Below, piece after piece: positions 7,546 to 53,798 of a DNA stretch of 64,000 bases. The stretch is taken from contig CBDFLJ010000002.1 in assembly GCA_965248835.1 (NCBI GenBank), positions 2,400,001 to 2,464,000 on the forward strand, read 5' to 3'. The notes beneath the pieces are model-generated. The model did no database searches and was not told where the DNA came from. It was given only the letters and a program-made list of their open reading frames with translations. The DNA comes from Alphaproteobacteria bacterium. Lineage in GTDB: Bacteria; Pseudomonadota; Alphaproteobacteria; MPNO01. The stretch's first letter is position 1. The number at the start of each line of letters is the position of its first letter. The position numbers and the translations under genes were made by a program.

Positions 7546-7701
7546 GGGCGTTCTCCTTGCCGCGAGGATAGGCGAATGCAACCGCCGATGACAGTGCGCG
7601 GCCGTTCCGGCCTGTCCCCACCCTGCACCCTACCCCGCACTAGGCTGCCGCCCGGCAAACCGCCATACTCGGTCCCAGCGTAGCCGGCGGGAGGACGCGG
7701 C

Positions 7702-8844
7702 ATGACGGCGGGCGGCGAGAAGCGCCGGATCACCTTGGGCGGACGAACGCTCGATGCACGGTTCAGCGTCCATCACAGCGGCAGCGGGCCGGGGCTGCTG
7801 GTGCTGGGCGACGGCGGCGGGCTCGATCAAGGGCTCGACGCGGTGGCGGCGCTGTTCGGCGAAGAAGGCTATGCCGCCTTGGCGTTCGATCCCCGCGATG
7901 TCGGGGACGTGGTCGAGGCGGCGGCGATGCTGCGCGCACTGCCCGAACGCCGCGGCGGGATCGGCGCGGTGGCCCACGGCAGCGGCGCCATCCTCGCCTG
8001 CCGGGCGGCAGCCGATGCCGGGTTCGCGGCGGTCGTCGCCTTCGATCCCGCCGACCCGACCGACCTGGCTGCGACGGTGGCCGGCATGCCCTGCCCGGTG
8101 GTCCTGCAATTCGGCACCGCCGGCTCCGGCGGTGCCGGCGCGAGCCTGCCGACGCTCGATCGCGGCGACGGCTCGAAGGTCTTCGAATACACCGACGCCG
8201 CGCCGGGCTTCGCCCTGCCGGGGCGGGCGGAATTCGACAGGCGGGTCGACGGGCTCGCCCATTCCCGCAGCCTGGAGGTGCTCCGCCGTGCGCTCGGGCC
8301 GCATTACGACCTGGTCGCGCTGTTCGCCGCCCATGTCCGCCATGAGTTCGAGACCCGCGACGTCGATGCGACCATGGCCACGATGATCGACGAGCCCTAT
8401 GTCAACCACGTCCCGACGCTCGCCGGCGGGGTCGGCCACGACATGCTCAAGCGGTTCTATGCCCATCATTTCGTCCATCAGAACTCGCGCGAGCGCGCCG
8501 GAACCCTGGTCTCGCAGACTCTCGGGCCCGACCGGATCGTGCTGGAGCAGGTCGTCCGCTTCCGCCACGACGCGGTGCTCGACCGCTACTTTCCGGGCAT
8601 CGCGCCGACCGGGCGGATGGTCGAGCTCGCGACGCTGCTGCTGGTCAAGTTCCGCGGCGACAAGGTGTGCCACGAACACATCTACTGGGACCAGGCCTCG
8701 GCACTGAAGCAGATCGGCGTGCTCGACGCGGACGGTCTGCCGATCGCCGGTGCCGAGGCGGCGGCCAAGGTGATCGACGAGACCCGGCCATCCAACATCT
8801 TCATGCAGGCGGCCTGGGCCGCCAGCGAAGGCAAACCCGTCTAA
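7702..8844 (+). CDS. Dienelactone-hydrolase-like domain fused to SnoaL/NTF2-like domain
   Basis: C-terminal HEFETRDVDATMATM..EPYVNHVPT...HEHIYWDQAS; N-terminal degenerate DLH fold. Confidence 0.75.
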   Translation: MTAGGEKRRITLGGRTLDARFSVHHSGSGPGLLVLGDGGGLDQGLDAVAALFGEEGYAALAFDPRDVGDVVEAAAMLRALPERRGGIGAVAHGSGAILACRAAADAGFAAVVAFDPADPTDLAATVAGMPCPVVLQFGTAGSGGAGASLPTLDRGDGSKVFEYTDAAPGFALPGRAEFDRRVDGLAHSRSLEVLRRALGPHYDLVALFAAHVRHEFETRDVDATMATMIDEPYVNHVPTLAGGVGHDMLKRFYAHHFVHQNSRERAGTLVSQTLGPDRIVLEQVVRFRHDAVLDRYFPGIAPTGRMVELATLLLVKFRGDKVCHEHIYWDQASALKQIGVLDADGLPIAGAEAAAKVIDETRPSNIFMQAAWAASEGKPV

Positions 8845-8942
8845 TTTCGCGCGCGGGGATCGCGAACTGTGCGCGCCGGAGGAACTTTGCTAGGCTTCGA
8901 CCTTGACCAACCGACGCCGGAAGGCGATGAGGAGATAATAGG

Positions 8943-9965
8943 ATGCGATTTCCCGGACTGAAGACGACTGCCGTCGGCCTCGTGGCCGGTGTGGCGCTGC
9001 TCGGCGCCGGCACCGCCGCGGAGGCAAAGATCAAGCGGATCACCATCGGCAGCAACCCGGCCGGCTCGGTCTACTTCCTGCTGGCCGGCGGCTTCGCCAA
9101 GCTGTTCCAGCAGAAGCTCGAGATCCGCTCGACCGCGCAGCCGCATGCCGGCTCGTCGGTCTACCTGCCGCTGATGAACAAGGGCGAGATCGTGCTCGGC
9201 CTCAATTCCAGCCTGGACTCGGGCATGGCGGTCAGCGGCCAGCCGCCGTTCCAGAGCAAGATCGCGAACGTGCGGATGATCGCGCGGATCTGGATCCTTC
9301 CCTACGCGTACATGGTCAAGGAGAACTCGGGCATCAAGACGATTGCCGACCTGCGCGGCAAGCGGGTCCTGGTCAACGTGAAGACCAACGTGTCCCTGGC
9401 CCAGGCCAACCGCACGCTGCTGTCGACCGCGGGGCTGACCGAGGCCGACGTAACCGCGATCGATTCCGGCGGCGTGGTCGCGGGCATCAACAGCGTCGTG
9501 GAGGGGCGTGCGCACGCCACCTCGATCGCCCTGACCATGCCGGCGATGCGCAAGGCCCATGCCACCGTGCCCGGCGGGCTCAGGGTCCTGGGTCTGGGCT
9601 CGATGGCCACCGACGCGTTCATGGCCAAGGGCATGGCCGGCCTCTACACGATGCAGGTCAAGTCCAGCAAGCGCCTGCCCTTCGTCCGCGGCGATACCTT
9701 GATCGCCGCCTTCGACAGCTATCTCAACGCCGGACCGCAGGTCGATGAAGAGGACGCCTACCGGCTGGCCATGACGCTTCACGTCAACTGGAAGAAGCTG
9801 CAGAAGGACTACCCGCCGCTGCGCGGGACGCCGCAGGCGGCGCTGGCGCCGTCCGGGAACGCGATGCCCTACCATCCCGGCGCCATTAAGTACTGGAAGG
9901 AAGTCGGCATGTGGACCGACGCCAACGCCGCCAGCCAGGCCAAGGTGATGAGCATGGTCCGTTAG
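8943..9965 (+). CDS. TAXI-family TRAP transporter solute receptor
   Basis: Signal peptide; ITIGSNPAGSVYF, SGIKTIADLRGKRV, PYHPGAIKYWKE. Confidence 0.85.
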   Translation: MRFPGLKTTAVGLVAGVALLGAGTAAEAKIKRITIGSNPAGSVYFLLAGGFAKLFQQKLEIRSTAQPHAGSSVYLPLMNKGEIVLGLNSSLDSGMAVSGQPPFQSKIANVRMIARIWILPYAYMVKENSGIKTIADLRGKRVLVNVKTNVSLAQANRTLLSTAGLTEADVTAIDSGGVVAGINSVVEGRAHATSIALTMPAMRKAHATVPGGLRVLGLGSMATDAFMAKGMAGLYTMQVKSSKRLPFVRGDTLIAAFDSYLNAGPQVDEEDAYRLAMTLHVNWKKLQKDYPPLRGTPQAALAPSGNAMPYHPGAIKYWKEVGMWTDANAASQAKVMSMVR

Positions 9966-10008
9966 GACCGCCGCAACGGCGCAGACCACACCACGCGGCG
10001 ACGCGACG

Positions 10009-11904
10009 ATGGATCGCTTCACCGGAGCGTTGCTGCGTGTCTGCCTGGCGCTGATCCCGATCATCGGGGTGCTGTGGATCTTCTCGGTCAGCGATCGGCT
10101 GGGCGTCACGCTGACCTTCCAGCAGACCGTCGGCACCGTCCTGGGCATCTCGGTGGCGGCGGCGTTTCTCAAATACCCCTATGCCAGCCGCACCGGATGG
10201 GGCGAGATCGTGCTGGCGGCGGTCGCGTTCGCGGCCTGGTTCTGGATGGCGATCCATTTCGAGCCGTGGATCGTCGGCATGGCCGACCGCACGCCCGAGA
10301 AGTGGGTGCCGGGCGTGATCGCGATCCTGACGATGATGGAGGCGCTGCGCAAAGCCTGCGGCACCGTCATCACGGCCCTGGTCTGGATCATGATCGCCTA
10401 TGCCTATTTCGGCGGACACCTGCCGGGCGTGCTGGAGGCCGAGGTGTTCCCGCCGACCAAGGTCATCCTCTACCTCTACGCCGACAACAACGGCATCCCG
10501 GGGCTGGTGCTGCGCGTGGTGACCGAGCTGGTGCTTGCCTTCATCATCTTCGGCAAGCTGCTGGAGGTCTCGGGCGCCACCCGGTTCTTCACCGATCTGG
10601 CGATGGCGCTGATGGGCCACCGCCGCGGCGGGCCGGCCAAGGTCGCCGTCGTCGCCTCCAGCGCATTCGGCACCATCTCCGGCTCGGCGGTCGGCAACAT
10701 CATGTCGACCGGCATCGTCACCATCCCGATGATGAAGCGCACCGGGTTCGAGCCGCGCTATGCGGCAGGGATCGAAGCGGTTGCTTCCAACGGCGGGCAG
10801 ATCGCGCCGCCGGTCATGGGGGCGACGGCCTTCATCATCGCGGAGTTTCTGGAGGTCCCGTATATCGACGTGGTGATCGCCGCGGCGATCCCGGCGGTGC
10901 TCTACTATCTGGTCCTGTTCCTCCAGGTCGATGCGATCGCCGTCCGGTTCGGGCTGCGCGGCTTGCCAAGGGCGGAGCTGCCGCGTGCGCTGCCGGTGCT
11001 GCTGGGGGGCTGGGTGTTCGTCCTGCCGCTCGGCGTGCTGATCTATTTCCTGTTCGGGCTCGGCTACAATCCCGGTCTGTCGGCGATGTATGCGGTGCTC
11101 GCGCTGCTCGCCTTGACGGTCGTCCGCAACCGGCGCCTGCCCAGCCGGGCGGAGTGGGCGGACTACACCTTCGGCTCGGGCGAGAACCTGCTGCCGCTGA
11201 TCCTGATCGCCGGCGGCGCTGGCGTGGTGATGGGGGTGCTGAATTCGACCGGGCTCGCCTTCCAGCTTTCGATCATCCTGGCCGAGCTCGGCGAGAGCGC
11301 CGGCATCCTCGCGATGCTGCTGGTGACCGCGCTGGTCTCGATCATCCTCGGCATGGGCATGCCGACGGCGGCGGTCTACATCATCCTGGCGACCGTGATC
11401 GCGCCGGCCCTGATCGAGATGGGGCTGCAACCGATGGCGGCCCACCTGTTCCTGTTCTATTTCGGCCTCTTGAGCATGCTCACCCCGCCGGTCGCAGTCG
11501 CCAGCATGGTTGCCGCAGGAATCGCGGGCTCGGACATGTGGCGCACCGGCGTCGTCGGGGTCCAGCTTGCCGCGGCCGCCTACCTGCTGCCCTTCCTGTG
11601 GGCGTTCAACCCCGCGCTGGTGATGGAAGGCTCCTGGCAAGCGGTCCTCTACGTCACCGCGACCGCGGCGGTCGCCGGGTTCCTGGTCGCCGAGGCGGTG
11701 GTCAAGCTGAGCGATCCCGGGCTGGTGAACAAGGGCCTGGCGCTCGCCTACTTTGCGGCGACGATTGCCGTCGGCGGCGCGACGATTTGGATCGGCCACG
11801 ATTCCCCCCTGACGCTTCTGGCCGCCGCCGCCGGTGCCGGGCTCATCGTCCTGGTCCGCCGCTGGGCGCCCGCCCGACAGCCGCGGACCGAGCCGTCGAC
11901 ATAG
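10009..11904 (+). CDS. TRAP transporter fused 4TM/12TM permease
   Basis: RGGPAKVAVVASS.FGTISGSAVGN, GGQIAPPVMGATAF, GMGMPT, LTPPVA. Confidence 0.9.
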   Translation: MDRFTGALLRVCLALIPIIGVLWIFSVSDRLGVTLTFQQTVGTVLGISVAAAFLKYPYASRTGWGEIVLAAVAFAAWFWMAIHFEPWIVGMADRTPEKWVPGVIAILTMMEALRKACGTVITALVWIMIAYAYFGGHLPGVLEAEVFPPTKVILYLYADNNGIPGLVLRVVTELVLAFIIFGKLLEVSGATRFFTDLAMALMGHRRGGPAKVAVVASSAFGTISGSAVGNIMSTGIVTIPMMKRTGFEPRYAAGIEAVASNGGQIAPPVMGATAFIIAEFLEVPYIDVVIAAAIPAVLYYLVLFLQVDAIAVRFGLRGLPRAELPRALPVLLGGWVFVLPLGVLIYFLFGLGYNPGLSAMYAVLALLALTVVRNRRLPSRAEWADYTFGSGENLLPLILIAGGAGVVMGVLNSTGLAFQLSIILAELGESAGILAMLLVTALVSIILGMGMPTAAVYIILATVIAPALIEMGLQPMAAHLFLFYFGLLSMLTPPVAVASMVAAGIAGSDMWRTGVVGVQLAAAAYLLPFLWAFNPALVMEGSWQAVLYVTATAAVAGFLVAEAVVKLSDPGLVNKGLALAYFAATIAVGGATIWIGHDSPLTLLAAAAGAGLIVLVRRWAPARQPRTEPST

Positions 11905-11946
11905 GGCTTGTCCGGAACATGGTCCGGCGGCGGCGGCAGAGTCGGT

Positions 11947-11960
11947 TTGATGCCGATCAA
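11947..11960. promoter_or_regulatory. FNR/FixK (Crp-Fnr family) consensus box
   Basis: TTGATGCCGATCAA is a perfect TTGAT-N4-ATCAA, intergenic, about 70 bp upstream of the ligA-like start. Confidence 0.6.
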
Positions 11961-12030
11961 AGTCGGAATCGCGCCGCGCGGGCTTTGAGATTAATCTGGG
12001 GCGTCGGGGAACGAGGATGCGGAGACGGTG

Positions 12031-12303
12031 ATGACGGATTACTGGCTGAACAAGCTGATGTTCGACCTCCAGGGGCCGGGCGGCAAGGACCGCTGGCAGG
12101 CGGACCGAACCGCCGTGCTCGATCAGTATCCGCTGGCGCCGGAGGTCCGCCAAGCGCTGCTCGACGACGACATGAAGGTCATTCAGCCGCTGGCCAACCC
12201 CTATCTGCTGCGCTTCCACCTGCTGATCAGCGGCTACGGCGATGCCGAATCGATCGCGCTGCTGAGCGCGCTCGCCAAGACCGAGGAGAGAGTCGATGGC
12301 TAG
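12031..12303 (+). CDS. LigA/CarBa-like small subunit of class III extradiol dioxygenase
   Basis: YWLNKLMFDL...VLDQYPL.PE.RQALL..D...ANPYLL; overlaps the ligB-like start. Confidence 0.7.
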   Translation: MTDYWLNKLMFDLQGPGGKDRWQADRTAVLDQYPLAPEVRQALLDDDMKVIQPLANPYLLRFHLLISGYGDAESIALLSALAKTEERVDG

Positions 12304-13129
12304 GATCGTAGGCTCGTTTGCCGCCTCGCACGGCCCCAACATCGCGCGCGAATGGGAGACCTTGAAGCCCCAGACGCGCGAATGGGTCCAGACCCGGTTC
12401 GACGACATGGGTGCGCGCATCAAAGCATTGGCACCCGATGTTCTGGTCATCCATTGCACCGACCATTGGGTCAATTTCTTCCTCGACAACATGCCAGCCT
12501 TCTGTATCGGCATCGGCGAGCAGCATGACGGCCCGCCCGAGCCGTTCATGAAGCCGGTCTTCCCCTACGAGACGCTGCCGGGCCACGCCGGGCTCGGCCG
12601 GCATCTCCTGAAGGCGGCCTTCGCCGCGGATTTCGACCCTGCCTATTCCATGCGCCTCAAGCTCGACCACGGCATGTGCGTGCCGATCTGGAAGCTCGAC
12701 TTCGACCCGATCCCGCCGATCGTGCCGGTGCTGATCAACCTGGTGGAAGAGCCCTTCCCGAGCCCGGCACGCTGCATCGCCTGGGGGCACATGATCCGCG
12801 ATGCGATCGAAAGCTATCCCGAGGACCTGCGGGTCGCGGTGCTGGGCACCGGCGGGCTCAGCCATTCGATCGGCGAGATCACCATGGGCTGGATCGACGA
12901 GCCGTTCGATCACGCCTGCATCGATCTGTTCAGGAACGCCTCGGACGGCGAGATCGCGGCGCGGCTGGACGAGATGCTGGAGCACACCGGCAACGGCGGC
13001 GCGGAGGTCCGCGCCTGGGCGGTCGCCCACGCCGCGGCCGGCAGCCAGGGCTTCGACCTGATCGACTACATCCCGATGCCCGAGGCGCTGATCGGCTGCG
13101 GCCTGGCCGAATGGCGTATCCCGGCCTGA
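12296..13129 (+). CDS. LigB/CarBb-like class III extradiol dioxygenase catalytic subunit
   Basis: ASHGP, TDHW..FF.DNMP.F.IG, LDHG..VP, GTGGLSH, NGG.EVR.W motifs. Confidence 0.85.
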   Translation: MARIVGSFAASHGPNIAREWETLKPQTREWVQTRFDDMGARIKALAPDVLVIHCTDHWVNFFLDNMPAFCIGIGEQHDGPPEPFMKPVFPYETLPGHAGLGRHLLKAAFAADFDPAYSMRLKLDHGMCVPIWKLDFDPIPPIVPVLINLVEEPFPSPARCIAWGHMIRDAIESYPEDLRVAVLGTGGLSHSIGEITMGWIDEPFDHACIDLFRNASDGEIAARLDEMLEHTGNGGAEVRAWAVAHAAAGSQGFDLIDYIPMPEALIGCGLAEWRIPA

Positions 13130-13162
13130 GCCCTACCCCGATGAGGTGATCGGAGCCGGCCC

Positions 13163-14365
13163 ATGAACGCCGTCCACAGGTCCACCGCGATCAAGGACCG
13201 GATCCCCGTGCTGGGGCTCAAGGAGTACTGGCACCCCGGCGTGCTGGCCCGCAAGGTGGGCAAACGTCCGGTCGGCATGAAGATGCTCGGTGAGGATGTC
13301 GTCTTCTTCCGCGGCAAGGACGGCAGGGTGGTCGCCGCAACCAATACCTGTCCACACCGCGGCGGATCGCTGATGCACGGCGATTGCCACTACCGAGGCA
13401 CCATCGCCTGCCCTTACCACGGCTGGGTGTTCGACGAGCACGGTGCGTGTCTGGCCGTGCTGTCGGAAGGGCCGAACAGCGCGATGCCGGGCAAGGTCAG
13501 GCTCCGGATCTACCCGACGCGGACGCTCAAGGGCCTGGTATTTGTCTGGATGGGTGAAGGCGTACCCGCCGCGATCGAAGAAGACGTCCCGCCCGAGTTC
13601 TTCGAGGACGACGGCACGATGCTGTTCATCTCCGTCCGCGACTGGGCGGTCAACTGGCGCGGCGCGCTGGAGAACGGCATGGACTCGCACGTCATGTACG
13701 TCCACCGCAACGCCCTGTTGTCGCTGATGGAGCCGATCCAGCATTTCGGCCCCGTCGGCTACTACCCCAAGGTGGTCAACGACAGGGCGGTCATCGGGTT
13801 TCTGAAGGACCCGCCCAGCAGCCGGAAACAGCATTTTGCGGCGCTGGGCGATAGCTGGCCCCGAACCGAGTGGCGCCGGCTGTGGCTGTGGGCCTTCGCC
13901 TGGCGCGCGAACCGGATCAAGAACAGCCCGCCCTTCCACGAGGACAGACAGGAATGGGGCATGCACGCCAAGGTCGACGGCAGATACGTCCGCGCGGCCG
14001 GCCACCACCTGCCCGCGATGTTCCGTTTCGATTTCGGCGGCCAGATGTATACGCGCTTCTGCGTCGCGACCACGCCCGATGAGACCAGGATCTTCTACGT
14101 CCACGCCTCGCGCCGTAAGGGCTGGCTCAACAGGAAGCTGCGAGCCGTCTACTACCACTGCTTCCGCAACTGGGCGCTGAACATCAACTTCTCCAGCCAG
14201 GACTACCGGGTGATGGCGACCCAGGACTATGCGGCGCCCGAGATGCTGTCCACCAGCGACGCGGAGATCGTCCAGTGGCGGCGCCTACTGCTGCGCGCCC
14301 GCGGAATGCCTCAGGCGCCGCATGCGGCTGAGACCGGGACGGCGGAGCGGACCGCGGCCGAGTAA
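13163..14365 (+). CDS. Rieske oxygenase, single-subunit type (CarAa/2-oxoquinoline 8-monooxygenase-like)
   Basis: LGLKEYWHP, CPHRG...CPYHGW, NWR.ALENGMDSH..YVH, NFSSQD. Confidence 0.8.
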   Translation: MNAVHRSTAIKDRIPVLGLKEYWHPGVLARKVGKRPVGMKMLGEDVVFFRGKDGRVVAATNTCPHRGGSLMHGDCHYRGTIACPYHGWVFDEHGACLAVLSEGPNSAMPGKVRLRIYPTRTLKGLVFVWMGEGVPAAIEEDVPPEFFEDDGTMLFISVRDWAVNWRGALENGMDSHVMYVHRNALLSLMEPIQHFGPVGYYPKVVNDRAVIGFLKDPPSSRKQHFAALGDSWPRTEWRRLWLWAFAWRANRIKNSPPFHEDRQEWGMHAKVDGRYVRAAGHHLPAMFRFDFGGQMYTRFCVATTPDETRIFYVHASRRKGWLNRKLRAVYYHCFRNWALNINFSSQDYRVMATQDYAAPEMLSTSDAEIVQWRRLLLRARGMPQAPHAAETGTAERTAAE

Positions 14366-14384
14366 CCCGACAAAAGGACGTTCA

Positions 14385-15443
14385 ATGGCGGAGATCCTCG
14401 GTCTCGGTCTGACCCACTATTCAGGCCTGCGGTTCACCGATGCCGACATGAGCATCTTTCTCAGAAGGACGCTCGAGGGCAGCCGGGTGCCAGCGGCGAT
14501 GAAGGACCCGGCCAATTGGCCGGCGCCGATGCGCGCCGAATGGGCGGACGACCGCGGTCTCGCCGCCGCGACCGCGCACCGCGCCCGGCACTGGGCGGCG
14601 TTCTCCGCAATCCGCGAGGAGTTGGCCCGGTTCGCGCCGGATTTCATCGTGATGTGGGGCGACGATCAGTACGAGAACTTCGTCGAGGACATGGTGCCGC
14701 CATTCTGCATCTACATCCTGGACCGTATCGAGTCCAAGCCGTTCCTGGCGGATCCCCGCCAGCCCGACGCCGCCAACCCGTGGGGCGAGGGCGCGGAGAC
14801 CGCCTTCGTCCATCGCGGCCACCCTGCAGGCGCGGCCTATCTCGCAGCGGGTCTGGGCGAGCGCGGGCTCGACGTTCCCTATGCCTACCGGCTGCGCTAT
14901 CACCGCGGGCTCGCGCATGCCTTCATCAACACACTGATGTTCCTCGACCACGACCGGACGGGGTTCGACCACCCGCTGGTGCCGTTTCACGTGAACTGCT
15001 ACGGCGGGGACCTGATCCGGACTCAGGGCGGCCACCTCGCGCCCGGCCAGGGGGGCGATGTGCCCGACCCGCCGGCACCCTCGGCGCCGGCGTGCTTCGA
15101 CCTCGGCCGTGCGGTCGCCTCGGTGCTGGCGGCATCGCCCTGGCGGGTGGCGTTGATGGCGTCTTCGAGCTGGTCGCACGCCTTCCTGACGGCCAAGAAC
15201 GCCTGGATCTACCCCGATCACGAGTCCGACCGCCGGCGCCTGGCGGATTTGCGCGCGGGCGACTACGCGCGCTGGCGCAGCTTGACCGGCGAAGAGATCG
15301 AGACCGCCGGCCAGCACGAGTTCCGCAACTGGATCTGCCTCGCCGGCGCGATGAGCGAGATCGGCTCGCAGGCGGAGATCATCGACTATATGGAGAGCTA
15401 TGTGATGAACTCCAACAAGTGCTTCGCCGTGTTCAGGCCATGA
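14385..15443 (+). CDS. Class III extradiol dioxygenase-like protein (LigB/MhpB superfamily, long form)
   Basis: MAEILGLGLTHY, WGDDQYENF.ED..PPFCIY, LAHAF, ASSSWSHAF, GQHEFRNW. Confidence 0.75.
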   Translation: MAEILGLGLTHYSGLRFTDADMSIFLRRTLEGSRVPAAMKDPANWPAPMRAEWADDRGLAAATAHRARHWAAFSAIREELARFAPDFIVMWGDDQYENFVEDMVPPFCIYILDRIESKPFLADPRQPDAANPWGEGAETAFVHRGHPAGAAYLAAGLGERGLDVPYAYRLRYHRGLAHAFINTLMFLDHDRTGFDHPLVPFHVNCYGGDLIRTQGGHLAPGQGGDVPDPPAPSAPACFDLGRAVASVLAASPWRVALMASSSWSHAFLTAKNAWIYPDHESDRRRLADLRAGDYARWRSLTGEEIETAGQHEFRNWICLAGAMSEIGSQAEIIDYMESYVMNSNKCFAVFRP

Positions 15444-16804
15444 ACGAGGCGCGCCAGGCCGACCGGCCCGGCCCGGCGGCGCCGCTCAGCGCGCAGCAGC
15501 GCGAATGGATCGCCGAGGCGAGCGCTGCGATCGACATGGATTTTCTTCTGGCAACGCTGGAGCGCGCGGTCGAGATTCCGAGCCCGACCGGGGCGGAGCG
15601 CGCCGTGGGCGCATTTTTTACCGAGACGATGAACCGGCGCGGGATCACCGCCCGGGACCAGCCGATCGACGAGCACCGCGCCAACAGCATCGGCCGCGTC
15701 GAGGGGACCGGCGAGGGACCGGACCTTTTGTTCTACGGCCATCTCGACACCACGTTCACCGCCGACCTCGATGAGGATCGTCCGGTCCTGGGCCACGCCC
15801 CGCGGCCGGACCTGCAGCCCAGGTTCCAGCGCCGCGACGACCTGCTTTACGGCCTCGGCCTGCAGAACCCCAAGGGCAGCGTGTGCTGCGCGATCGCGGC
15901 GGTCGATGCGGTCCTGCGCAGCCGCGTCGCGCTCAAGGGCAGCGTCACCGTCGGGTTGGCCGCCGGCGGCATCCACAAGGGCCCGGTCGAGGGGTTGATG
16001 CGGCCCTATCGCGGCGGCCGCTACCAGGGTTTCGGGGTGGGCTGCGAATACATGCTCAAGCACGGCCTGACCGCGGACTACTGCATCAGCACCAAACCCG
16101 GCTACGGCATCGTCTGGGAAGAGCCCGGCGAGTGCTGGTTCCGGGTCGAGATCACCGGCAGGCTGTGCTATTCGGGCCTGCGCCATATCCAGCCCAACCG
16201 CAACCCGATCGTCGACGCGGCCGCGATCATTCCGATGATCGAGGACTGGATCGCCGACCACACCAGGCGCCAAACGCTCGGCCAGATCGCGCCCCAGGGC
16301 ACGGTCGGGGCGATTGAAGCGGGCTGGCCGTTCAAGCCCGAGTTCATCCCCGGCATCTGCGTGCTCTACATCAACGTCCACACCAACGCGGTGCAGACCC
16401 CGCACGAGCTGCGCCGGAGCTTCGCCGCCCTGATCGAGGAGATACGGGCCGCGCGGGAGGGCATCGAAATCACCTGCGACATGCTGCTGTCATGGCCGGG
16501 CTCGCGGACGCCGCCGGAGGACTGGATCGTCCGCTCGGTCTCCGGCGCGCTGGAGGCGGTCGAGGGGCGGCCGGTTATCGTCAGCGGTCTCAGCGGGACG
16601 ACCGACGGGCCGATCCTGCGCCGTGCCGGGATCGCCACCGCACGGGTCGGGCTGCCCGGCATGGCCGAGCCGGAGCCCGACTGGCCGCCGATGTTCGATG
16701 CCTGCCGCATCGCCGACCTTGAGCGGCTGAGCAGGGTCTATGTCCATGCGCTGATCGATACCTGCACGCGGCCCCGCGAGGAGACCGCCGCACCAGGCCC
16801 TTGA
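15440..16804 (+). CDS. M20/ArgE-like hydrolase-fold protein
   Basis: IPSPTG.E, LLFYGHLDT, LYGLG..NPKG, G.TDG; ATGA overlap with upstream gene. Confidence 0.75.
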   Translation: MNEARQADRPGPAAPLSAQQREWIAEASAAIDMDFLLATLERAVEIPSPTGAERAVGAFFTETMNRRGITARDQPIDEHRANSIGRVEGTGEGPDLLFYGHLDTTFTADLDEDRPVLGHAPRPDLQPRFQRRDDLLYGLGLQNPKGSVCCAIAAVDAVLRSRVALKGSVTVGLAAGGIHKGPVEGLMRPYRGGRYQGFGVGCEYMLKHGLTADYCISTKPGYGIVWEEPGECWFRVEITGRLCYSGLRHIQPNRNPIVDAAAIIPMIEDWIADHTRRQTLGQIAPQGTVGAIEAGWPFKPEFIPGICVLYINVHTNAVQTPHELRRSFAALIEEIRAAREGIEITCDMLLSWPGSRTPPEDWIVRSVSGALEAVEGRPVIVSGLSGTTDGPILRRAGIATARVGLPGMAEPEPDWPPMFDACRIADLERLSRVYVHALIDTCTRPREETAAPGP

Positions 16805-16893
16805 ACCACAGCGGATTGTCGTAGCCCGGGGTTTCCGACATCATGGGCCGCCGCCCGTTTCCGGGTCGGCCGAACCGGCTGGAGTTTCACCCG

Positions 16894-17934
16894 ATGCGCA
16901 TCGTCGATTCACACTTCCACTGGTGGCCGCGCTCGATCTTCGAGCAGCTCTGCAAGCGCAGTGGCTACCCGCGCGCGGAGGTCAACGACATCGGCGGCTA
17001 TGCCTATTGGCGCCGCGAGGATAGCGCGGAACCGCTGAATATCTGGGGCGAGTGGTTCGACCTCGACAAACAGCTCGAACACATGGACGGCCTCGGCCAC
17101 GAGGTGGACGTGGTCTGCTCGATCGGACCGTTCTCGGTCCATTTCTCCGACGTTCCCGCCGACCAGGGCCGCGACGACGCGATGCTGTGGAACGAGGAGA
17201 TGGCCGGCGCGCAGCGCAGGTATCCGGGCCGGGTGTGGGCGAGCGCGGCCGTACCACTGACCGACACCGACATCGCCATCGAGGTCTTCGATCATGCGAT
17301 CAACGAGCTCGGCCTGATGGGGGTCAACCTGCCGGGCAGCGTCGGCAGCGACCCGCGCATCGACGCCGACCGGCTGGAGCCTTTCTACGCCCGCGTCGCG
17401 GAAGCGGGCGTGCCGATGTTCCTGCACCCGACCGACGCGGTATTCCAGGACATGCTGCAGGGCTATGACGGTGCGCTTCACCTCAGCCTCGGCCGGGTGA
17501 TCGAGGTCAGCGTCGCGGCCATGCGATTGGTCCTGTCGGGGATACTGGATCGTCACCCCGATCTTACGGTGGTGATGTCCCACACCGGGGGCGCCCTGCC
17601 CTACCAATCCGGCCGGATGGACAAGAACGGCAAGGCGGCGAAGCTTCCCGAGCCGCCGAGCACCTACATCAAGCGGCTCTACAGCGACACCGTCTCGCCG
17701 CACATGGCAGGCATCCGCTACGCGATCGAGTATTTCGGCGTCGACCGCGTCATGTATGGCAGCGACTACCCTTGCTGGATGCCGGCCGAGGCTCTGCGCT
17801 ATCTGGAAGAGGTCGGACTGCCGCCGGCGGATCGGGAGAAGATCCTGAACACCAACGCCAGGCGCATCCTGGGGTTGCGCGATCCGGTTGCGCCGGTGGT
17901 CCGGCTGCAGGCAAGCGCCGCCGCTCTGGTCTAG
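16894..17934 (+). CDS. Amidohydrolase_2-family protein (ACMSD/LigW-like decarboxylase or hydratase)
   Basis: VDSHFH, MFLHP, SHTGGALP, VMYGSDYP, NARRIL. Confidence 0.85.
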   Translation: MRIVDSHFHWWPRSIFEQLCKRSGYPRAEVNDIGGYAYWRREDSAEPLNIWGEWFDLDKQLEHMDGLGHEVDVVCSIGPFSVHFSDVPADQGRDDAMLWNEEMAGAQRRYPGRVWASAAVPLTDTDIAIEVFDHAINELGLMGVNLPGSVGSDPRIDADRLEPFYARVAEAGVPMFLHPTDAVFQDMLQGYDGALHLSLGRVIEVSVAAMRLVLSGILDRHPDLTVVMSHTGGALPYQSGRMDKNGKAAKLPEPPSTYIKRLYSDTVSPHMAGIRYAIEYFGVDRVMYGSDYPCWMPAEALRYLEEVGLPPADREKILNTNARRILGLRDPVAPVVRLQASAAALV

Positions 17935-18130
17935 CCCATGCCGCGAACAGGTTGGATCCGCGCTCCGCAGCGAGCGGGTCCAATCTATGCCTGAAGCCAG
18001 CCCGAACAGGTCGACCCGCCGCCGGCGGACGCTCACCGGAATGCGGGCCGCCGCACCGGTCCAGCGTCCTTGGGACATCACCGTTCGGCACAAATCCTGT
18101 AGGATGGGAGCGGAACCGAGGAGAGACGAC

Positions 18131-18379
18131 GTGGCGGAATTCTATCGTCCGGATCTCGGCGCCAATGCCGATGATCCGTTTGCCCGCGATGCCGACGGCA
18201 AGCTCGTGCGGCGCGGCTACTGGCTGGACATGGCCGACCGGTCTCTGGTGCTGGCGATGACCCAGGGGGTCGGCGCCAATCTGAGCGCCGATCAGAAGCG
18301 CGCCCATCTGGCGGATATCGGCCGGGACCATCTCATCGAGGCGGTCTGCGTCGTCGAGATCCTGCCGCCGGAGAAGTGA
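18131..18379 (+). CDS. Small hypothetical protein
   Basis: RBS GAGGAG, GTG start, GC3-biased codons, 82 aa; no recognisable family. Confidence 0.6.
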   Translation: MAEFYRPDLGANADDPFARDADGKLVRRGYWLDMADRSLVLAMTQGVGANLSADQKRAHLADIGRDHLIEAVCVVEILPPEK

Positions 18380-18469
18380 TCGCCGCGATCTGCACGAGCG
18401 ATCGGACCGGGCTTGAATTGCCGCTTTGGCGGCGTGTTTGCGATCATGGGACCGACCCCGACAAAGAAG

Positions 18470-19315
18470 ATGCCCGACGATCTCGAAGGCCTCAAACGCC
18501 ATATCGGAAACACCGCCGTCGCGCATGACGTCGCCGCCGCTTCCCAGGCCGGCAGGCTTGCCGCGACCCTGGGGGTCGCCCATCCGGCGCCCAATCCCGG
18601 CGATGCGTTGCCGCAGGGTTGGTACGGAATCTTTTTTCCGCCGCTCACGCCCACCGCCGGGCTGCGCGCCGACGGGCAGCCGGGCGAAGGGCTGGTGCCG
18701 CCGGTCCCGCTGCCGCGGCGGCGGCTGGAATCGGTGCGCGCGGTCTTCCACGAACCGATCCGGATCGGCGACCGGCTGAAAAAAATCTCCGAGGTCGCCG
18801 AAATCTCCGTCGAGGACCGCGGCGCCGGGCCGGTCGTCGGCGTGACGATCACCGAGACGATCACCGCGGAAGACAGGCTCTCGGTGGTCGAGCAGCGCGC
18901 GTTCCGGTTTTTCGGCGAGGCCGGGCCGGGCGCACCGGCCGAAGCGCCGTCGGTGCCGCAAGAGGCCGAATGGAGCCGGCGGATCGAGCCGGACCCGGTG
19001 ATGCTGTTCCGTCTGTCGGCGGTTCGGTTCAACAGCCACCGGGTGCATTACGACCGCGAATACGCCACCACGGTCGAAGGCATGCCGGGGCTTGCGGTGC
19101 CGATCACGCTGGTCTCCTCCCAGATGATCGAGATGCTGCGCGAGGCGCTGCCCGACCGGAGCCTGGCTTCGATCACCTACCGCTCGGTCAGACGGATCTT
19201 CGATCTCGGCGCCTACACCATCAACGGCGCGGCGGCGGACGGCGCGGCGGCGTTATGGGCGCGCGACCATGAGGACGCGCTCGCCGTGCTGGCGGAAGCG
19301 ACCTTCGCCGGCTGA
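18470..19315 (+). CDS. Double hot-dog dehydratase (mesaconyl-C4-CoA hydratase/HTD2-like)
   Basis: GD.LP.GW, L..DG, PP.PLPRR, PDPV.LFR.SA..FNSHR.HYDR.Y; alternative start 18446. Confidence 0.75.
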   Translation: MPDDLEGLKRHIGNTAVAHDVAAASQAGRLAATLGVAHPAPNPGDALPQGWYGIFFPPLTPTAGLRADGQPGEGLVPPVPLPRRRLESVRAVFHEPIRIGDRLKKISEVAEISVEDRGAGPVVGVTITETITAEDRLSVVEQRAFRFFGEAGPGAPAEAPSVPQEAEWSRRIEPDPVMLFRLSAVRFNSHRVHYDREYATTVEGMPGLAVPITLVSSQMIEMLREALPDRSLASITYRSVRRIFDLGAYTINGAAADGAAALWARDHEDALAVLAEATFAG

Positions 19316-19337: not shown

Positions 19338-21659
19338 TCATTGCGACAGCAAGCCGAGCACGCGCTGGGGTGTGATCGGCAGTTCGATCCCGGCGATGTC
19401 GAGCCCGAGCGCATCGATGACCGCGCCCGCGATGGCCGCCGGCGCGCCGATGGTGCCGCTCTCGCCCATGCCCTTGTAGCCGCCCTCGGTCAGCGGCGAG
19501 AGCGTTTGCTGGTGGACGATCCGCAAATCGGGCCCTTCGAAGGCGGCGGGGATCATGTAATCGGCAAACGAGCCGGTCTGGAGCTGCCCGTCCTGGTCGT
19601 AGTTGATCTCCTCCAGGAGCGCCGCCCCGATCCCCTGGACCACCGCTCCCTGGATCTGCGCCACGACGGTCTCCAGGTTCGCGATCCGGCCGCAATCCTC
19701 GGCGACGGTATAGCCGATCACCTCGACCTCGCCGGTTTCGGTGTCGACCTCCACGACGGCGATATGCACGGCCGAGGAGACCGCCGCACCCGGCGTGGTG
19801 AAACTTGCCGTGGTCATCAGCCCGTGCTCCAAGCCTTCGGGCAGCCCACCGACGGGCGCGTGTGCGAACGCGGCGATCTCCGCGAACGTCGCGAACCGGT
19901 TGCCGCCGGCGCTGAAGCGTCCGTCGGCATACGCGATCTCGCCCGGATCGACATCGAAGCGAATCGCGGCAAGCCGGGTCATTCGCTCGATCATCTTGCC
20001 GGCGGCACGCTGCAGCGCCCCGCCGCCCGAAACCAGCCCCCGGCTGCCGAACGCGCCGGAGCCGTGCGGCATCGCCGATGTGTCCGCGCACCGCACGGCG
20101 ACGGACTCCGCGGCGACCTCGAGTTTGCCGGCGAGGATGGCGCGCATCGAATTGAACGGGAGCTGGCCCATCGCCGGCACCGTGACGTAGGCCTCGACAT
20201 CGCCTGAGCGGGCGACGCGGATCTGCGCGGCATCGAAGGCCGGGATCTCGGACATGCCGCGGCTGCGGAAGACGCTGCACCCCATCCCCGTCGGCTCGAT
20301 GAAGCACGACAGGCCGATGCCGCGGCGGCGTCCGGGCCGCGCAGCGCCGCGCGGCTGTGCGGCGAGCCTCGCGTAACCGGCGGCATCCAGGGCCTTGTCC
20401 AGGAGCGCCGGATAGTCGCCGCTGTCCAGGATCGCCCCCGATGCGCTGCGGAAAGGATGGGCGTCGGGCTGGACCATGTTGCGCCGGCGGATCTCGGCAC
20501 GGTCGATGCCGGTGCGCCGGGCGAGCCCGTCCATCAGCCCCTCGGTCACCAGCGGCGCCAGGGCGAAGCCGACCCCGCGATAGGGACCGGTCGGGCACTT
20601 GTTGGTCGCCACCGCATGGCCGGTGTAGTCGTACCACGGCACGACATAGGGACCGGGCAGGCCGACGATGGCGGTGTGCGGCTCCAGCGCGCATCCCAGC
20701 GGATAGGGGGAATAGGCCCCCGAATCGCACCAGACCTGCGCGCGCAGGCCCAGGATGCGGCCGTCCTCCGTGGCGCCGAGCTCGGCTTCGATCACCGCGT
20801 CGCGGGCGTGATAGGCGGTCTGCAGGTGCTCGATCCGGTCCTGCGCCCACTTGACCGGCCGGCCAAGCCGCCGGGCCGCGAAGACCGTTACCACCTCTTC
20901 GGCATAAAGCGGCATCTTGACACCGAATCCGCCGCCGATATCGACCGGGATCACTCGGATCTTCGACTCCGCGATGTCGAGGAAGCGCGCCAGCCCGTCG
21001 CGCAGCATGTGCGGCGTCTGGCTCGGCGAATAGACGTCTGTCTGGTCCAGGCGCCGGTCATGGACGGCGACGCATCCGCCGCATTCGATCGGGGATGCGG
21101 CGACACGCGGATGGCGGAACCGGCCCGAAATCCGCACCGGCGCAACGGCGATCGGATCGGCCTCCGGATCGGTGACCATCCGGCTGCGGAACATCGTGTT
21201 GTCTTCGATCTCGGCATGCACCAGCGCCGCGCCGGGGGCAAGCGCCGCCTCGACATCGGCCACCACGGGCGCGGACCCGTAGCCGACCTCGATCAGCGCA
21301 CAGGCATCTTCGGCCCGGTAGAGATCGGTCGCAACGACGGCGGCCACCGGCTCGCCGACGAACCGGACCCGATCGACGGCGATCGCGGGCCAATCGGTCT
21401 CGCGATAGCTGTACCAGTCGGCTTCGTCCATGCGCGCGGCCATCGGCGCCACGCGGCCGGCAAGCGCCGCCCCGGTGAGGACCGCGATCACGCCCTCGGC
21501 CGCTTCGGCCGAACCGGTGTCGATCCCGATGATTTCCGCAGCCGCGAACGGGCTGCGCAAGAAGGCGATGTGAAGACAACCGGCCGGCGCGACGTCGTCG
21601 ATATAGCGGCCCCGTCCGGACAGCAACGGAACGCGCTCGTCGAGGGGATCGATGCTCAT
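19338..21659 (-). CDS. Xanthine dehydrogenase-family molybdopterin-binding large subunit
   Basis: LLSGRGRYIDD, VGEPVAAVVA, IGGGFGVK, active-site loop PYRGVG, KGMGESG. Confidence 0.9.
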   Translation of the reverse strand: MSIDPLDERVPLLSGRGRYIDDVAPAGCLHIAFLRSPFAAAEIIGIDTGSAEAAEGVIAVLTGAALAGRVAPMAARMDEADWYSYRETDWPAIAVDRVRFVGEPVAAVVATDLYRAEDACALIEVGYGSAPVVADVEAALAPGAALVHAEIEDNTMFRSRMVTDPEADPIAVAPVRISGRFRHPRVAASPIECGGCVAVHDRRLDQTDVYSPSQTPHMLRDGLARFLDIAESKIRVIPVDIGGGFGVKMPLYAEEVVTVFAARRLGRPVKWAQDRIEHLQTAYHARDAVIEAELGATEDGRILGLRAQVWCDSGAYSPYPLGCALEPHTAIVGLPGPYVVPWYDYTGHAVATNKCPTGPYRGVGFALAPLVTEGLMDGLARRTGIDRAEIRRRNMVQPDAHPFRSASGAILDSGDYPALLDKALDAAGYARLAAQPRGAARPGRRRGIGLSCFIEPTGMGCSVFRSRGMSEIPAFDAAQIRVARSGDVEAYVTVPAMGQLPFNSMRAILAGKLEVAAESVAVRCADTSAMPHGSGAFGSRGLVSGGGALQRAAGKMIERMTRLAAIRFDVDPGEIAYADGRFSAGGNRFATFAEIAAFAHAPVGGLPEGLEHGLMTTASFTTPGAAVSSAVHIAVVEVDTETGEVEVIGYTVAEDCGRIANLETVVAQIQGAVVQGIGAALLEEINYDQDGQLQTGSFADYMIPAAFEGPDLRIVHQQTLSPLTEGGYKGMGESGTIGAPAAIAGAVIDALGLDIAGIELPITPQRVLGLLSQ

Positions 21660-23119
21660 GCCGGCTCCACGTCATAGCTGTTCATCAGGCCGCTGAGAAT
21701 GTCGTCGAGCCCTTCCCAGTCGCAGACAAGGAAGCTGTAGAGGTTCATCACGAAACCGGGCCCGGCGTAGAATTTTTCGTACTGGGAATGCCGGCCGGCG
21801 AACTCGGAGCCCAGCAGGTCCCAGGCGAGCCGAAGCAGCTTCATGCGCTCCTTGGCGGTCTGGTCCGGCGCCGACCAGTAGGTTTCGAACTTCTCGGCCA
21901 GCTCCGGGTCGGCCAGCACCGAGGAATCGGCCGGCATCTGGAACGGCCCGCCGCCCATCAGCTCGCGCACCTGGTCGCAGATTTCCGAATAGTTGGTGGA
22001 GCACCAATGAAGCGCGGCATACATGTAGCGTCGGTTGACGGTCACGTAGCCGGAGCCCGGCACCATCTCTTCGCAGTCCAGGAGCTGGCCCCTGATCAGC
22101 CCTTCGAGCGTGGCGAGCTTGGCGGCAAGCTCGCCCATCACGCCCTGGACCGCGGGGATGTCGGCCGCATTGTTCATCTGCACGATGCGGTGGGCGACCG
22201 CGACGATCAGCTTGAGCTTCTCCAGGAAGCGGATATTGGCCTGGTGGTTGGCGAGCGAATGCCCGGGTGTCAGCGTGTAGATCGCCCGTGTCATCTCGAC
22301 GTCTTCGTGCAGGAAGACGTTCTCCCATGGCACATGGACGTCCTCGAACAGCACGGCCGCGTCGGTCTCGTCGAAGCGCCATGACAGCGGCATATCGAAT
22401 TCATTGATCGCGAACTTCTCGTATGGCTTGCGCGCCCAGATCGACACGCCCGGCGTTCCCAGCGGCACCGCGCAGGTAATGGCCTCCTTCTCCTGGCCCG
22501 GTGCGACGGGCTGCAGGTTGCCGACCCAGGTGGCATGGCAGAAGACCGCCGAAGTGCCGATCATCTTCAGCCCGTTGAGCGTCACCCCCGCGTCGTCCTC
22601 GGCCGTCACCCGCAGCGTCGGTGTCGGCCGGCCGGCATCGGTGAACGCCTTCGGCCGGCGGCTGACCTGCGGGTTTGTGACCGTGTGGGCGAGGAACAGG
22701 TCCTCCCGCCGCGCCTTCCTGTAGTAGGCGGTGAGGTTCGCGCCGGTGCCGGGCCGCAGGCTCTCGAACAGATCCGGCCTCGTGGCGAGCCCGCTCAGAT
22801 AGCTCGGGAAATTATCGGGCGAACGGCCAAGCAGGCCGTAGGACCACGAGGCGATCCGGCGATGGACCTCATAGCGGCGTTCCAGATCCGCGCGGCAGCG
22901 CGCCATCAGCCAATAGGCCGAATACGCCTCGCCATCCTCCTCGCACACCATCAGGTCGCGCTGATCCGGCGCGCGTTTCCTGTCGTAGATCTCGGCGAAG
23001 GACCGCGCCGCGTTGCGGAACGCCGGATGGGCCGTAACGTCCTCGATTCGCTCGCGCCCGACATAGACGCAGCGGCCGTCGCGCAGGCTCTCAAGGTATT
23101 CCTCACCGCTCAGCAGCAT
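21656..23119 (-). CDS. 4-hydroxyphenylacetate 3-hydroxylase (HpaB)-family flavin monooxygenase component
   Basis: GEEYLESLRDGR.VYV, GRSPD, RFDETDA...F.DV.VPWENVF, FAGRH.QYEKFYAG. Confidence 0.85.
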   Translation of the reverse strand: MLLSGEEYLESLRDGRCVYVGRERIEDVTAHPAFRNAARSFAEIYDRKRAPDQRDLMVCEEDGEAYSAYWLMARCRADLERRYEVHRRIASWSYGLLGRSPDNFPSYLSGLATRPDLFESLRPGTGANLTAYYRKARREDLFLAHTVTNPQVSRRPKAFTDAGRPTPTLRVTAEDDAGVTLNGLKMIGTSAVFCHATWVGNLQPVAPGQEKEAITCAVPLGTPGVSIWARKPYEKFAINEFDMPLSWRFDETDAAVLFEDVHVPWENVFLHEDVEMTRAIYTLTPGHSLANHQANIRFLEKLKLIVAVAHRIVQMNNAADIPAVQGVMGELAAKLATLEGLIRGQLLDCEEMVPGSGYVTVNRRYMYAALHWCSTNYSEICDQVRELMGGGPFQMPADSSVLADPELAEKFETYWSAPDQTAKERMKLLRLAWDLLGSEFAGRHSQYEKFYAGPGFVMNLYSFLVCDWEGLDDILSGLMNSYDVEPA

Positions 23120-23210
23120 CCCGACGACTCCACACAAACGCGATGGGCGAGCATAGGGCGAAGGCACCGGTGCTGCTACTCTGGCCGGCGGACAGCAAGG
23201 GAAGACGGGC

Positions 23211-39649: not shown

Positions 39650-39719
39650 TCCTTCCCCCTGGTGACGGGCCGCGGTGTGGCAGGCGAACAATAGACCGGA
39701 ACCGTGGAGACCTGCAGCC

Positions 39720-53705: not shown

Positions 53706-53798
53706 CACACCTCGGGAGGCTGGTTTGCGGCCAACAGTGCGCGGATCGGCGCGCGGTGTCGAGCGGGCCGGCCCGACTCCTGTCAAGCGGGCAATGCG

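Follow-up and report, generated by a model that had tools for sequence, protein, structure and literature searches.

A conserved, uncharacterised triad of Rieske, LigB-fold and M20 genes within a composite six-gene array of an alphaproteobacterium

The 64,000-nucleotide stretch of alphaproteobacterial DNA analysed here (hereafter the window) contains six closely spaced genes (g1 to g6), all on the + strand between positions 12031 and 17934, 3' of the genes for a TAXI-TRAP transporter. Comparisons with relatives showed that, on sequence evidence, this array consists of three blocks that lie apart in other genomes, with limits at 13130/13185 and 16784/16813: a LigAB-type pair (g1 and g2, block A), a triad encoding a Rieske oxygenase, a LigB-fold protein and an M20 protein (g3, g4 and g5, block B), and a decarboxylase-like gene (g6, block C). 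Only g3, g4 and g5 are co-conserved among the six. We tentatively favour, at chances close to evenly balanced, the interpretation of this triad within the composite as an uncharacterised module for an N-substituted aromatic compound. The array is better seen as pointing to a conserved triad that is still uncharacterised, and to a deeper pair of Rieske and M20 genes within it, than as an operon of six genes acting on a bicyclic N-heterocyclic acid.

Composite structure of the array

A first-pass annotation of the window had described six co-directional, closely set genes downstream of a TAXI-TRAP transporter, an arrangement confirmed by the coordinates and by Pfam and NCBIfam matches. Its family assignments (LigA/B, a CarAa-like Rieske oxygenase, a second class III dioxygenase, an atypical M20 protein and an Amidohydro_2 enzyme) were also correct, as judged from Pfam and Protein Data Bank (PDB) matches. 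The genes are as follows:

12031–12303, + strand: g1, LigA-like small subunit, 90 amino acids; ATG start, with a GTG at 12028; Pfam LigA 1.3e-6, above the cut-off
12296–13129, + strand: g2, LigB catalytic subunit, 277 amino acids; Pfam LigB 4.3e-33; overlaps g1 by 8 nucleotides (nt)
13163–14365, + strand: g3, CarAa-like Rieske oxygenase of presumed homotrimer type, 400 amino acids; Pfam Rieske 2.1e-18 and Aromatic_hydrox 7e-10
14385–15443, + strand: g4, divergent LigB-fold protein, 352 amino acids; Pfam LigB 2.2e-8
15440–16804, + strand: g5, NaaA-like atypical M20 protein, 454 amino acids; Pfam Peptidase_M20 1.9e-6 and M20_dimer 5.1e-5
16894–17934, + strand: g6, decarboxylase-like Amidohydro_2 protein, 346 amino acids (363 from the ATG at 16843); Pfam Amidohydro_2 1.5e-35

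Gaps of 33 nt and 19 nt separate g2 from g3 and g3 from g4, and g4 and g5 share an ATGA start/stop overlap. The gap between g5 and g6 is 89 nt if g6 starts at the ATG at 16894, which has a GGAG 9 nt 5' of it, or 38 nt with the alternative ATG at 16843; the ATG of g1 has a GGAG 7 nt 5' of it. Gene calling based on G+C content at third codon positions (GC3) picked five of the six frames, and the frame of g5 was set from its open reading frame (ORF), Pfam match and start codon. None of the six catabolic genes reached the cut-off of a curated NCBIfam model. Five terminator-like sites were detected, against 3.9 expected by chance, and the + strand has just one of them, within g5; the promoter scan returned no promoter-like sites. 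Both scans are uninformative at the G+C content of this genome.

Nucleotide homology to relatives is interrupted at two points within the array. G002, a complete genome from the same genus, matches the window from 5850 to 13130 with 82–87% identity (blastn); the match ends one base past the LigB stop codon, and the G002 flank beyond LigB maps to another contig of the source genome. The triads of the genomes G012 and G007 match 13185–16784 with 76% nt identity (starts at 13185/13187 and ends at 16781/16784), and orthologues of g6 match 16813–17934 (G002) and 16829–17888 (G007) with 83–86% nt identity. The two junctions are:

13130–13184, no strand: junction of blocks A and B, between the end of homology to G002 and the start of homology to the G012 and G007 triads
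16785–16812, no strand: junction of blocks B and C, between the end of triad homology and the start of homology to g6 orthologues, at 16813 (G002) or 16829 (G007)

These separate homology limits, together with the mapping of the G002 flank, indicate that three blocks have been joined at rearrangement breakpoints. In G007, the triad, g6 and LigAB are located at 2.25, 2.85 and 3.28 Mb, and in G002 LigAB and the g6 orthologue are 2.5 Mb apart; of the triad genes, only g5 was sought in G002, with no match at E ≤ 1e-20. Both junctions are bridged without differences by contigs from four runs of one sample, including a 3,940-nt contig covering 13078–17017, and are therefore no obvious assembly artefact, although these runs are probably the source of the assembly itself and do not provide independent support. 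Two “skip” joints (11841>16232 and 12924>17317), with only 21 letters on the shorter side, were disregarded.

None of the other genomes searched yielded the full six-gene set. A scan with the g4 alignment, based on one genome per species, identified 563 relatives; the 80 best loci were retained, together with as much as 10 kb of flanking sequence on either side. Searches of these 80 loci with the window proteins (tblastn) detected g5 in two (L001, from Defluviicoccus, and L006) and g3-like genes in nine; there was no match to g1 (LigA), and no match to LigB or g6 exceeded 32% identity. The first-pass annotation had made its operon depend on the co-conservation of the six genes, which was not what we found: the parts are megabases apart in G002 and G007, and only g3-g4-g5 is kept together. 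All six genes may now be co-transcribed. The block structure provides a clean example of operon assembly by rearrangement, and illustrates that a pathway cannot be deduced from close spacing alone.

The conserved triad and its proteins

The triad occurs in another genus of the family, in a metagenome-assembled genome (MAG) of Defluviicoccus, in another alphaproteobacterial MAG and in metagenomes, with g3 orthologues of 69–72% identity adjoining g4-g5. In the genus that also bears the label g6 (not to be confused with the gene), g5 orthologues with 74–76% identity were present in 10 of 12 genomes, and the triad was found in all six of the loci fetched (with g4 split in G007), as well as in L001 and L006. 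No g5 orthologue was detected in the other 48 of the 60 relatives, among them the two remaining genomes of the genus to which the window belongs: seven contained only paralogues with 36–41% identity, and 41 gave no match at E ≤ 1e-20. The G007 orthologue of g4 was recovered as two tblastn pieces (L095:10408-11459), and the g5 orthologue of L006 lies in two ORFs (L006:11032-12412); these splits correspond to frameshifts, pseudogenes or sequencing errors.

A metagenome scan with the g5 alignment yielded 28 loci, eight of which have g4 adjoining g5. At 12 of the 28, a g3 orthologue (59–60% identity) is followed directly by g5, with no g4; at one, g3 and g5 are 2 kb apart, and the remaining seven are too short to tell. 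In the maximum likelihood tree for g5, all the g4-bearing loci formed one clade (15 rows, support 95/97), which includes L110, cut off within g4, and G007, with its split g4. Wherever enough contig was available to check, the g5 orthologue adjoined a g3 orthologue. Judged from gene order and phylogeny, the Rieske and M20 pair was thus shown to be the deeper conserved unit, with g4 lying between its two genes in one clade only.

The islands containing the triad (G012, G014, Defluviicoccus and L114) also encode a type I extradiol dioxygenase, two alpha/beta hydrolases and a Cpn60-like protein, to which G014 and L114 add UbiD, an SDR protein and an MFS transporter; an HpaB-family gene lies near the triad at five of the six loci of the genus labelled g6, and in L114 and L115. 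The loci with the pair only have a run of genes for a GntR/FCD regulator, a HAAT-type ABC transporter, the Rieske and M20 proteins, and an arginase-family or YdjC protein, with NtaA-like monooxygenases nearby. In the high-GC metagenome contigs L120–L137 (e.g. L129:3611-12307), this run forms a conserved operon in which the HAAT-type ABC transporter is encoded by five genes; the arginase-family gene is found in L121 and L129, and the YdjC gene in L123 and L125.

The best PDB match of g3 was CarAa (4.5e-31, 111 bits), followed by phthalate-type oxygenases (81 bits), DdmC (62 bits) and OxoO (60 bits, 1e-15). The similarity to CarAa is limited to residues 16–200, in the N-terminal half, and the Pfam Aromatic_hydrox match extends only from 129 to 202. 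In the translation, the motifs C63-x-H65...C83-x2-H86 and D174-x-H176-x4-H181 are intact.

By sequence, g4 matched only 37 residues of MhpB in the PDB. A model predicted from 18 homologues (pLDDT 87.4, pTM 0.90) had LigAB beta as its best fold match (E 3.5e-14, TM 0.74 on the target), followed by DesB, MhpB and aminophenol dioxygenases, and hhalign aligned g4 with g2 at a probability of 97.6%. The predicted fold is that of the LigB-type class III extradiol dioxygenases. The His-His-Glu ligand set of these enzymes is incomplete in g4. The active site was mapped from the profile alignment of g4 with g2, the alignment of g2 with LigB and the ligand list for DesB, which comprises His12, Asn57, His59 and Glu239, with His124 and His192 as acid/base residues, according to the part of the article used (PMC3962378). 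On this mapping, g4 keeps H11 and E312, has Gln95 at the His61-equivalent position and Asp93 at the Asn-equivalent position, and aligns H178 and H265 with H125 and H190 of g2 (acid/base His127 and His195 of LigB). Both histidines are invariant in the 18 aligned sequences, as is the motif GDDQYENF, which holds Asp93 and Gln95; these sequences include MAGs labelled Rokubacteria, Chloroflexota and Betaproteobacteria.

The g4 family comprises at least 3,497 homologues at E ≤ 1e-5 (7,996 candidates scored), with generic names or none; clusters in a protein atlas bear only generic “extradiol ring-cleavage dioxygenase” names. The best 120 homologues listed are 57–99% identical to g4 and come from Pseudomonadota, Chloroflexota, Rokubacteria and Binatia. 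At 76 g4-family loci, clustering of the neighbours (with GC3-based ORF calling) identified Rieske oxygenases at 15, two groups of alpha/beta hydrolases at 15 and 9, and Amidohydro_2 proteins at 12. Fifteen extra g4-family copies were found across these 76 loci, eight of them directly downstream of the first copy, in up to eight loci; these tandem copies might point to a two-subunit form in certain lineages.

The g5 protein has both the catalytic and the dimerisation domain of M20 proteins (PF01546, 28.4 bits, cut-off 24.6; PF07687, 23.6 bits, cut-off 21), and no NCBIfam model reached its cut-off (best score 70.4 vs 217.6). Its only close solved relative is NaaA, 5-nitroanthranilate aminohydrolase (2.5e-30; next PDB match 2.8e-3), with about 30% identity over residues 38–336. 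Both proteins have HLDT, and N-P-K-G in g5 aligns with N-C-K-G in NaaA, the Asn being common to both. The canonical dinuclear site of M20 enzymes comprises HxD, a bridging Asp and Glu-Glu. Only one member of the NaaA-like M20 clade is characterised. Two NaaA-like M20 paralogues are encoded elsewhere in the same genome, at G000:C2:2070590-2071894 (L097; 39% identical to g5) and G000:C1:1512468-1513775 (L098; 37%), and both adjoin homotrimer-type Rieske genes. L098 also contains genes for a class IA reductase of the Fer2-FAD-NAD type, a VanA-like oxygenase, a creatinase-like M24 protein and a MetE-like protein.

Possible pathways and comparison with known systems

CarAa-like oxygenases attack at or beside the heteroatom-bearing carbon, and NaaA-like and other M20 enzymes hydrolyse C–N bonds. 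In the route we favour, g3 would act first, aided by a reductase and a ferredoxin whose genes lie elsewhere, and oxygenate the N-bearing ring carbon or a position next to it; g5 would hydrolyse the C–N bond of an amide or (like NaaA) of an aryl-amine, and the catechol- or aminophenol-type product would then undergo ring cleavage by g4. We propose this order because the Rieske and M20 pair is older than the triad; the age of the pair suggests that g3 and g5 act consecutively on one substrate and that g4 was added later as a ring opener. If correct, this would be a route for N-substituted aromatics in which an M20-fold enzyme replaces the usual alpha/beta hydrolase or deaminase, and it would provide a function for two large unannotated families, the g4 family and the NaaA-like M20 clade.

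Several observations weigh against this route. One canonical iron ligand is absent from g4, which may therefore not be a dioxygenase. In g5, GGIHK takes the place of the GEID stretch of NaaA, without the Glu, and the His of HLDT varies across the wider family (2 of 18 aligned sequences have Gln, and three others lack it), so NaaA-like chemistry is no more than possible for g5. No ferredoxin or reductase gene was present among the scanned ORFs of the window or adjoining g3 at the triad loci examined. The two fully annotated pair-only loci (L121 and L129) have no ring-cleavage gene within 10 kb, and the neighbours of the pair at such loci would fit nitrogen scavenging from a compound that is not necessarily aromatic. 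Finally, the gene order g3-g4-g5 fits a carbazole-type sequence of oxygenation, cleavage and hydrolysis equally well.

This last possibility, with angular or lateral dioxygenation by g3, cleavage of the diol ring by g4, and hydrolysis by g5, as a substitute for CarC, of an amide in the ring-fission product, appears improbable. The car genes are reportedly ordered carAa-carB-carC (encoding CarAa, CarBaBb and CarC), an order paralleled by g3-g4-g5; the ATGA overlap of g4 and g5 and the hydrolase genes that often adjoin g4-family genes (alpha/beta and Amidohydro_2, in the 76-locus counts above) are consistent with it. It sits poorly with the Rieske and M20 pairs lacking g4 at 12 of the 28 metagenome loci and at both paralogous loci of the same genome: as the pair occurs without g4, the M20 partner would predate the g4 product and not depend on it. 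The g4-less pairs are accounted for by a scheme in which g5 acts first, as a NaaA-like enzyme converting NH2 to OH on an amino-aromatic acid, which g3 would then hydroxylate to a dihydroxy acid for cleavage by g4, because dihydroxybenzoate could then feed into a central pathway with genes at another site. Among solved structures, NaaA resembles g5 far more closely than any other, and GntR/FCD regulators and HAAT-type ABC transporters accompany the pair. We nonetheless regard deamination as the first step as rather unlikely, given the extent of the NaaA match (about 30% over residues 38–336), the different GEID stretch, the lack of conservation of a metal-binding His across the g5 family and the strongly activated ring that hydrolytic aryl deamination requires. 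The pair might also act on a non-aromatic N compound (guanidino, ureido or N-methyl), with g4 a LigB-fold protein other than a ring-cleaving dioxygenase. The genes for arginase-family, YdjC, NtaA-like monooxygenase and peptide/opine-type binding proteins at pair-only loci would suit such a substrate, as would the loss of the canonical His ligand from g4 and the membership of the homotrimer-type Rieske group, which includes the N-demethylases NdmA/B, carnitine oxygenase and stachydrine demethylase, several of them among the PDB hits of g3. We consider it very improbable: CarAa leads the g3 matches by 30 bits, g4 retains the catalytic acid/base histidines and the Glu ligand, and the triad islands are rich in aromatic-catabolic genes.

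The first-pass annotation had proposed that the six genes make up a single operon dedicated to a bicyclic N-heterocyclic carboxylic acid, whose two rings would be opened one after the other, by way of TAXI-TRAP uptake, Rieske hydroxylation, two LigB-type cleavages, amide hydrolysis by the M20 protein and decarboxylation by the Amidohydro_2 enzyme. The tight spacing with overlaps, and the lack of a terminator-like site between the genes, are as expected for an operon. The triad islands of the genus labelled g6, Defluviicoccus and L114 also hold a second extradiol dioxygenase (of type I), the non-oxidative decarboxylase UbiD (not seen in Defluviicoccus, where the upstream part of the locus is cut off) and an HpaB-family monooxygenase, and the window has analogous, non-homologous parts in LigAB, the Amidohydro_2 gene and an HpaB gene at 21656–23167. 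Against this, the set was seen in no other genome, and the 80 loci of g4 relatives contain no LigA match and no LigB or g6 match with >50% identity. LigAB is near-universal in the order and lies, at four of the five loci annotated with Pfam, among housekeeping-type genes or beside a histidine kinase gene; the g6 orthologues have different neighbours, and the block limits coincide with rearrangement breakpoints relative to a genome of the same genus. A single dedicated operon is thus unlikely, and the sequential opening of both rings by the six genes is unsupported as a conserved design. Such opening could still be achieved by a newly assembled six-gene combination, since no terminator-like site separates the blocks. 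The first-pass interpretation is supported in part: the idea of an N-substituted aromatic substrate is reasonable for the triad. A more far-reaching version of our favoured reading, possible if doubtful, takes the pair as a widespread, uncharacterised N-removal device for (N-hetero)aromatics and g4 as a new class III subclass with a His/Asp/Gln/Glu site, present in several phyla, the module being in the process of joining LigAB/TAXI-TRAP and the decarboxylase as a new pathway.

Searches of the full-text literature found no description of the six-gene set, the triad or the Rieske and M20 pair, in agreement with the earlier view that the gene set matches no characterised pathway. The carbazole upper pathway resembles the triad in that g3 is nearest to CarAa and is followed by a LigB-fold enzyme and a hydrolase. 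It differs in that the CarAa match covers only residues 16–200 of g3, g4 has Gln at a His ligand position and no CarBa-like small subunit, and the hydrolase is of the M20 type rather than an alpha/beta-fold C–C hydrolase (CarC). Identity with the car operon was rejected, as there is no CarBa, no CarC and no electron-transfer gene in 12031–17934. That interval also contains no alpha/beta-fold meta-cleavage hydrolase, as the first-pass annotation had pointed out; the nearest candidates in the window are the weakly DLH/SnoaL-like ORF at 7702–8844 and an Abhydrolase_1 gene at 39675–40499. The 8-hydroxycoumarin route of quinoline degradation via OxoO was also rejected: OxoO scored 60 bits against g3, versus 111 bits for CarAa, and instead of a three-subunit molybdopterin hydroxylase there is only a lone large-subunit gene (19338–21659, − strand).

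The protocatechuate 4,5-dioxygenase LigAB and the gallate dioxygenase DesB resemble g1/g2, a two-subunit LigAB-type pair with all the canonical residues, and share their fold with g4, which is only 15–16% identical and has Asp and Gln at the positions of Asn57 and His59 of DesB. The dehydrodivanillate (DDVA) pathway of Sphingobium sp. SYK-6 reportedly involves the Rieske oxygenase LigXa, the LigB-type LigZ, and LigY and LigW of the amidohydrolase type. On this composition, the combination of Rieske, LigB-type and Amidohydro_2-fold enzymes resembles the array and recurs around g4 relatives, but g6 fits decarboxylases (98 bits) better than LigY (50 bits), and the pathway has no M20 enzyme; on these two grounds, identity with the LigX/LigZ/LigY system was rejected.

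In the 5-nitroanthranilate pathway of Bradyrhizobium sp. JS329 (NaaA followed by 5-nitrosalicylate dioxygenase), a hydrolase is likewise coupled to ring cleavage. According to the portions of the sources used, NaaA removes the aryl amino group hydrolytically (PMC10306065, PMC11903332), the ring-cleaving enzyme is a cupin and not a LigB-fold protein (PMC10306065), and no Rieske oxygenase is described in those portions; the pathway was rejected as identical because its ring cleavage depends on a cupin. The quinoxaline part of riboflavin/lumichrome catabolism involves, as outlined in the portion used of its source (PMC12746152), a molybdopterin hydroxylase, a ring-opening Rieske oxygenase yielding an amide, amide hydrolysis and extradiol cleavage. 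This logic matches that of the proposed g3, g5, g4 route by analogy only, the parts being presumably unrelated: the same portion describes an alpha/beta Rieske oxygenase with its own ferredoxin and reductase, non-enzymatic amide hydrolysis and a catechol-dioxygenase-like enzyme (PMC12746152). Compared with these systems, the triad looks like an aromatic upper-pathway module that is unusual in two of its parts, the hydrolase partner being an M20 protein and the LigB-fold enzyme being of the Gln type.

Flanking blocks and neighbouring genes

Block A extends upstream from g1 and g2 over the following features:

5846–6343, − strand: Rieske oxygenase beta subunit (Pfam Ring_hydroxyl_B/SnoaL_4), divergent from the transporter genes
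6319–7581, − strand: Rieske oxygenase alpha subunit (Pfam Rieske and Ring_hydroxyl_A), likewise divergent
7702–8844, + strand: ORF of 380 amino acids, with weak DLH and SnoaL Pfam matches below the cut-off
8943–9965, + strand: TAXI solute receptor (NCBIfam TIGR02122, 122.7 bits vs a cut-off of 84.35)
10009–11904, + strand: fused TRAP permease of the DctQM type (NCBIfam TIGR02123, 514.3 bits vs a cut-off of 320.65)

The complete block, with divergent Rieske alpha/beta genes, the DLH/SnoaL-like ORF, TAXI, TRAP, LigA and LigB, is present in G002. The arrangement of the Rieske genes (76–84% identity) and the position of the 380-amino-acid ORF (83%) are kept there, and the order TAXI-TRAP-LigA-LigB is kept in both G002 and G005. 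The most likely partners of LigAB are the genes upstream of it, for the transporter, the Rieske alpha/beta subunits and the hydrolase-like protein, with which it would form a separate unit. The g1 and g2 orthologues adjoin each other at all seven of the loci fetched from relatives, and g2 orthologues were present in all 26 relatives searched, making LigAB a near-universal pair of the order. The five LigAB loci annotated with Pfam include housekeeping-type genes in G005, G006 and G007 and a histidine kinase gene in G002; in other genera, LigAB is surrounded by genes for ETF, 3-hydroxyacyl-CoA dehydrogenase, argininosuccinate lyase, EF-P and similar proteins.

Together, g1 and g2 have the LigB domain ligands and the LigA small subunit of a class III (LigB-type) extradiol dioxygenase. 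The g2 protein matches LigB and DesB at about 1e-27 (6.9e-28 for LigB 1b4u_B), with every ligand and base residue present: H12, H57, H190 and E237 align with H12, H61, H195 and E242 of LigB, of which His12, His61 and Glu242 are the Fe ligands and His195 the catalytic residue. Its score of 159 bits is well below the NCBIfam cut-off of 290 for named class III enzymes.

The PDB matches of g6 (block C) were 3nur (1.1e-28), gamma-resorcylate decarboxylase (3.9e-27), ACMSD (2e-23), LigW (5e-22) and LigY (2e-12), with 77–104 bits for decarboxylases versus 50 for LigY and 46 for LigJ. It has a full Amidohydro_2 profile, with HxH in DSHFHWW (residues 5–11 from the 16894 start), features that place it, by its predicted protein, in the decarboxylase group. 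Orthologues with 69–89% identity were found in 5 of 25 relatives, distant from LigAB and the triad; their neighbours are hydantoinase A/B genes (G007 and G029) or GMC-oxidoreductase and SnoaL genes (G002). We consider that g6, a probable enzyme of the decarboxylase type, reached the array through rearrangement. The G002 orthologue of g6 is 2.2 kb from the GMC oxidoreductase gene (L107:5909-7576); the homologue of this gene in the window (41724–43397, 69–74% nt identity) is found 24 kb downstream of g6 and has the opposite relative orientation, which suggests that DNA was inverted or inserted, with a breakpoint immediately upstream of g6. A second contig of 185 nt, corresponding to 17763–17947 and with nine differences over the 3' end of g6, is present in all four runs of the sample, and represents a co-occurring strain or a paralogue.

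Two ORFs follow g6 on the + strand: one of 163 amino acids without a family match (17888–18379), which overlaps the 3' end of g6, and then one of 300 amino acids with weak hotdog/dehydratase-like matches (18413–19315). Neither adjoins g6 orthologues in relatives. The window contains three genes for large subunits of molybdopterin hydroxylases (19338–21659, 51306–53786 and 62795–63979, all on the − strand), with no adjoining FeS or FAD subunit gene among the scanned ORFs; the first of these is followed by the HpaB-family monooxygenase gene (21656–23167). An IS1595-type transposase gene (1219–1740, + strand) and an IS3-type (rve) gene (4202–5152, − strand) lie just to the left of 5850, where the homology to G002 begins.

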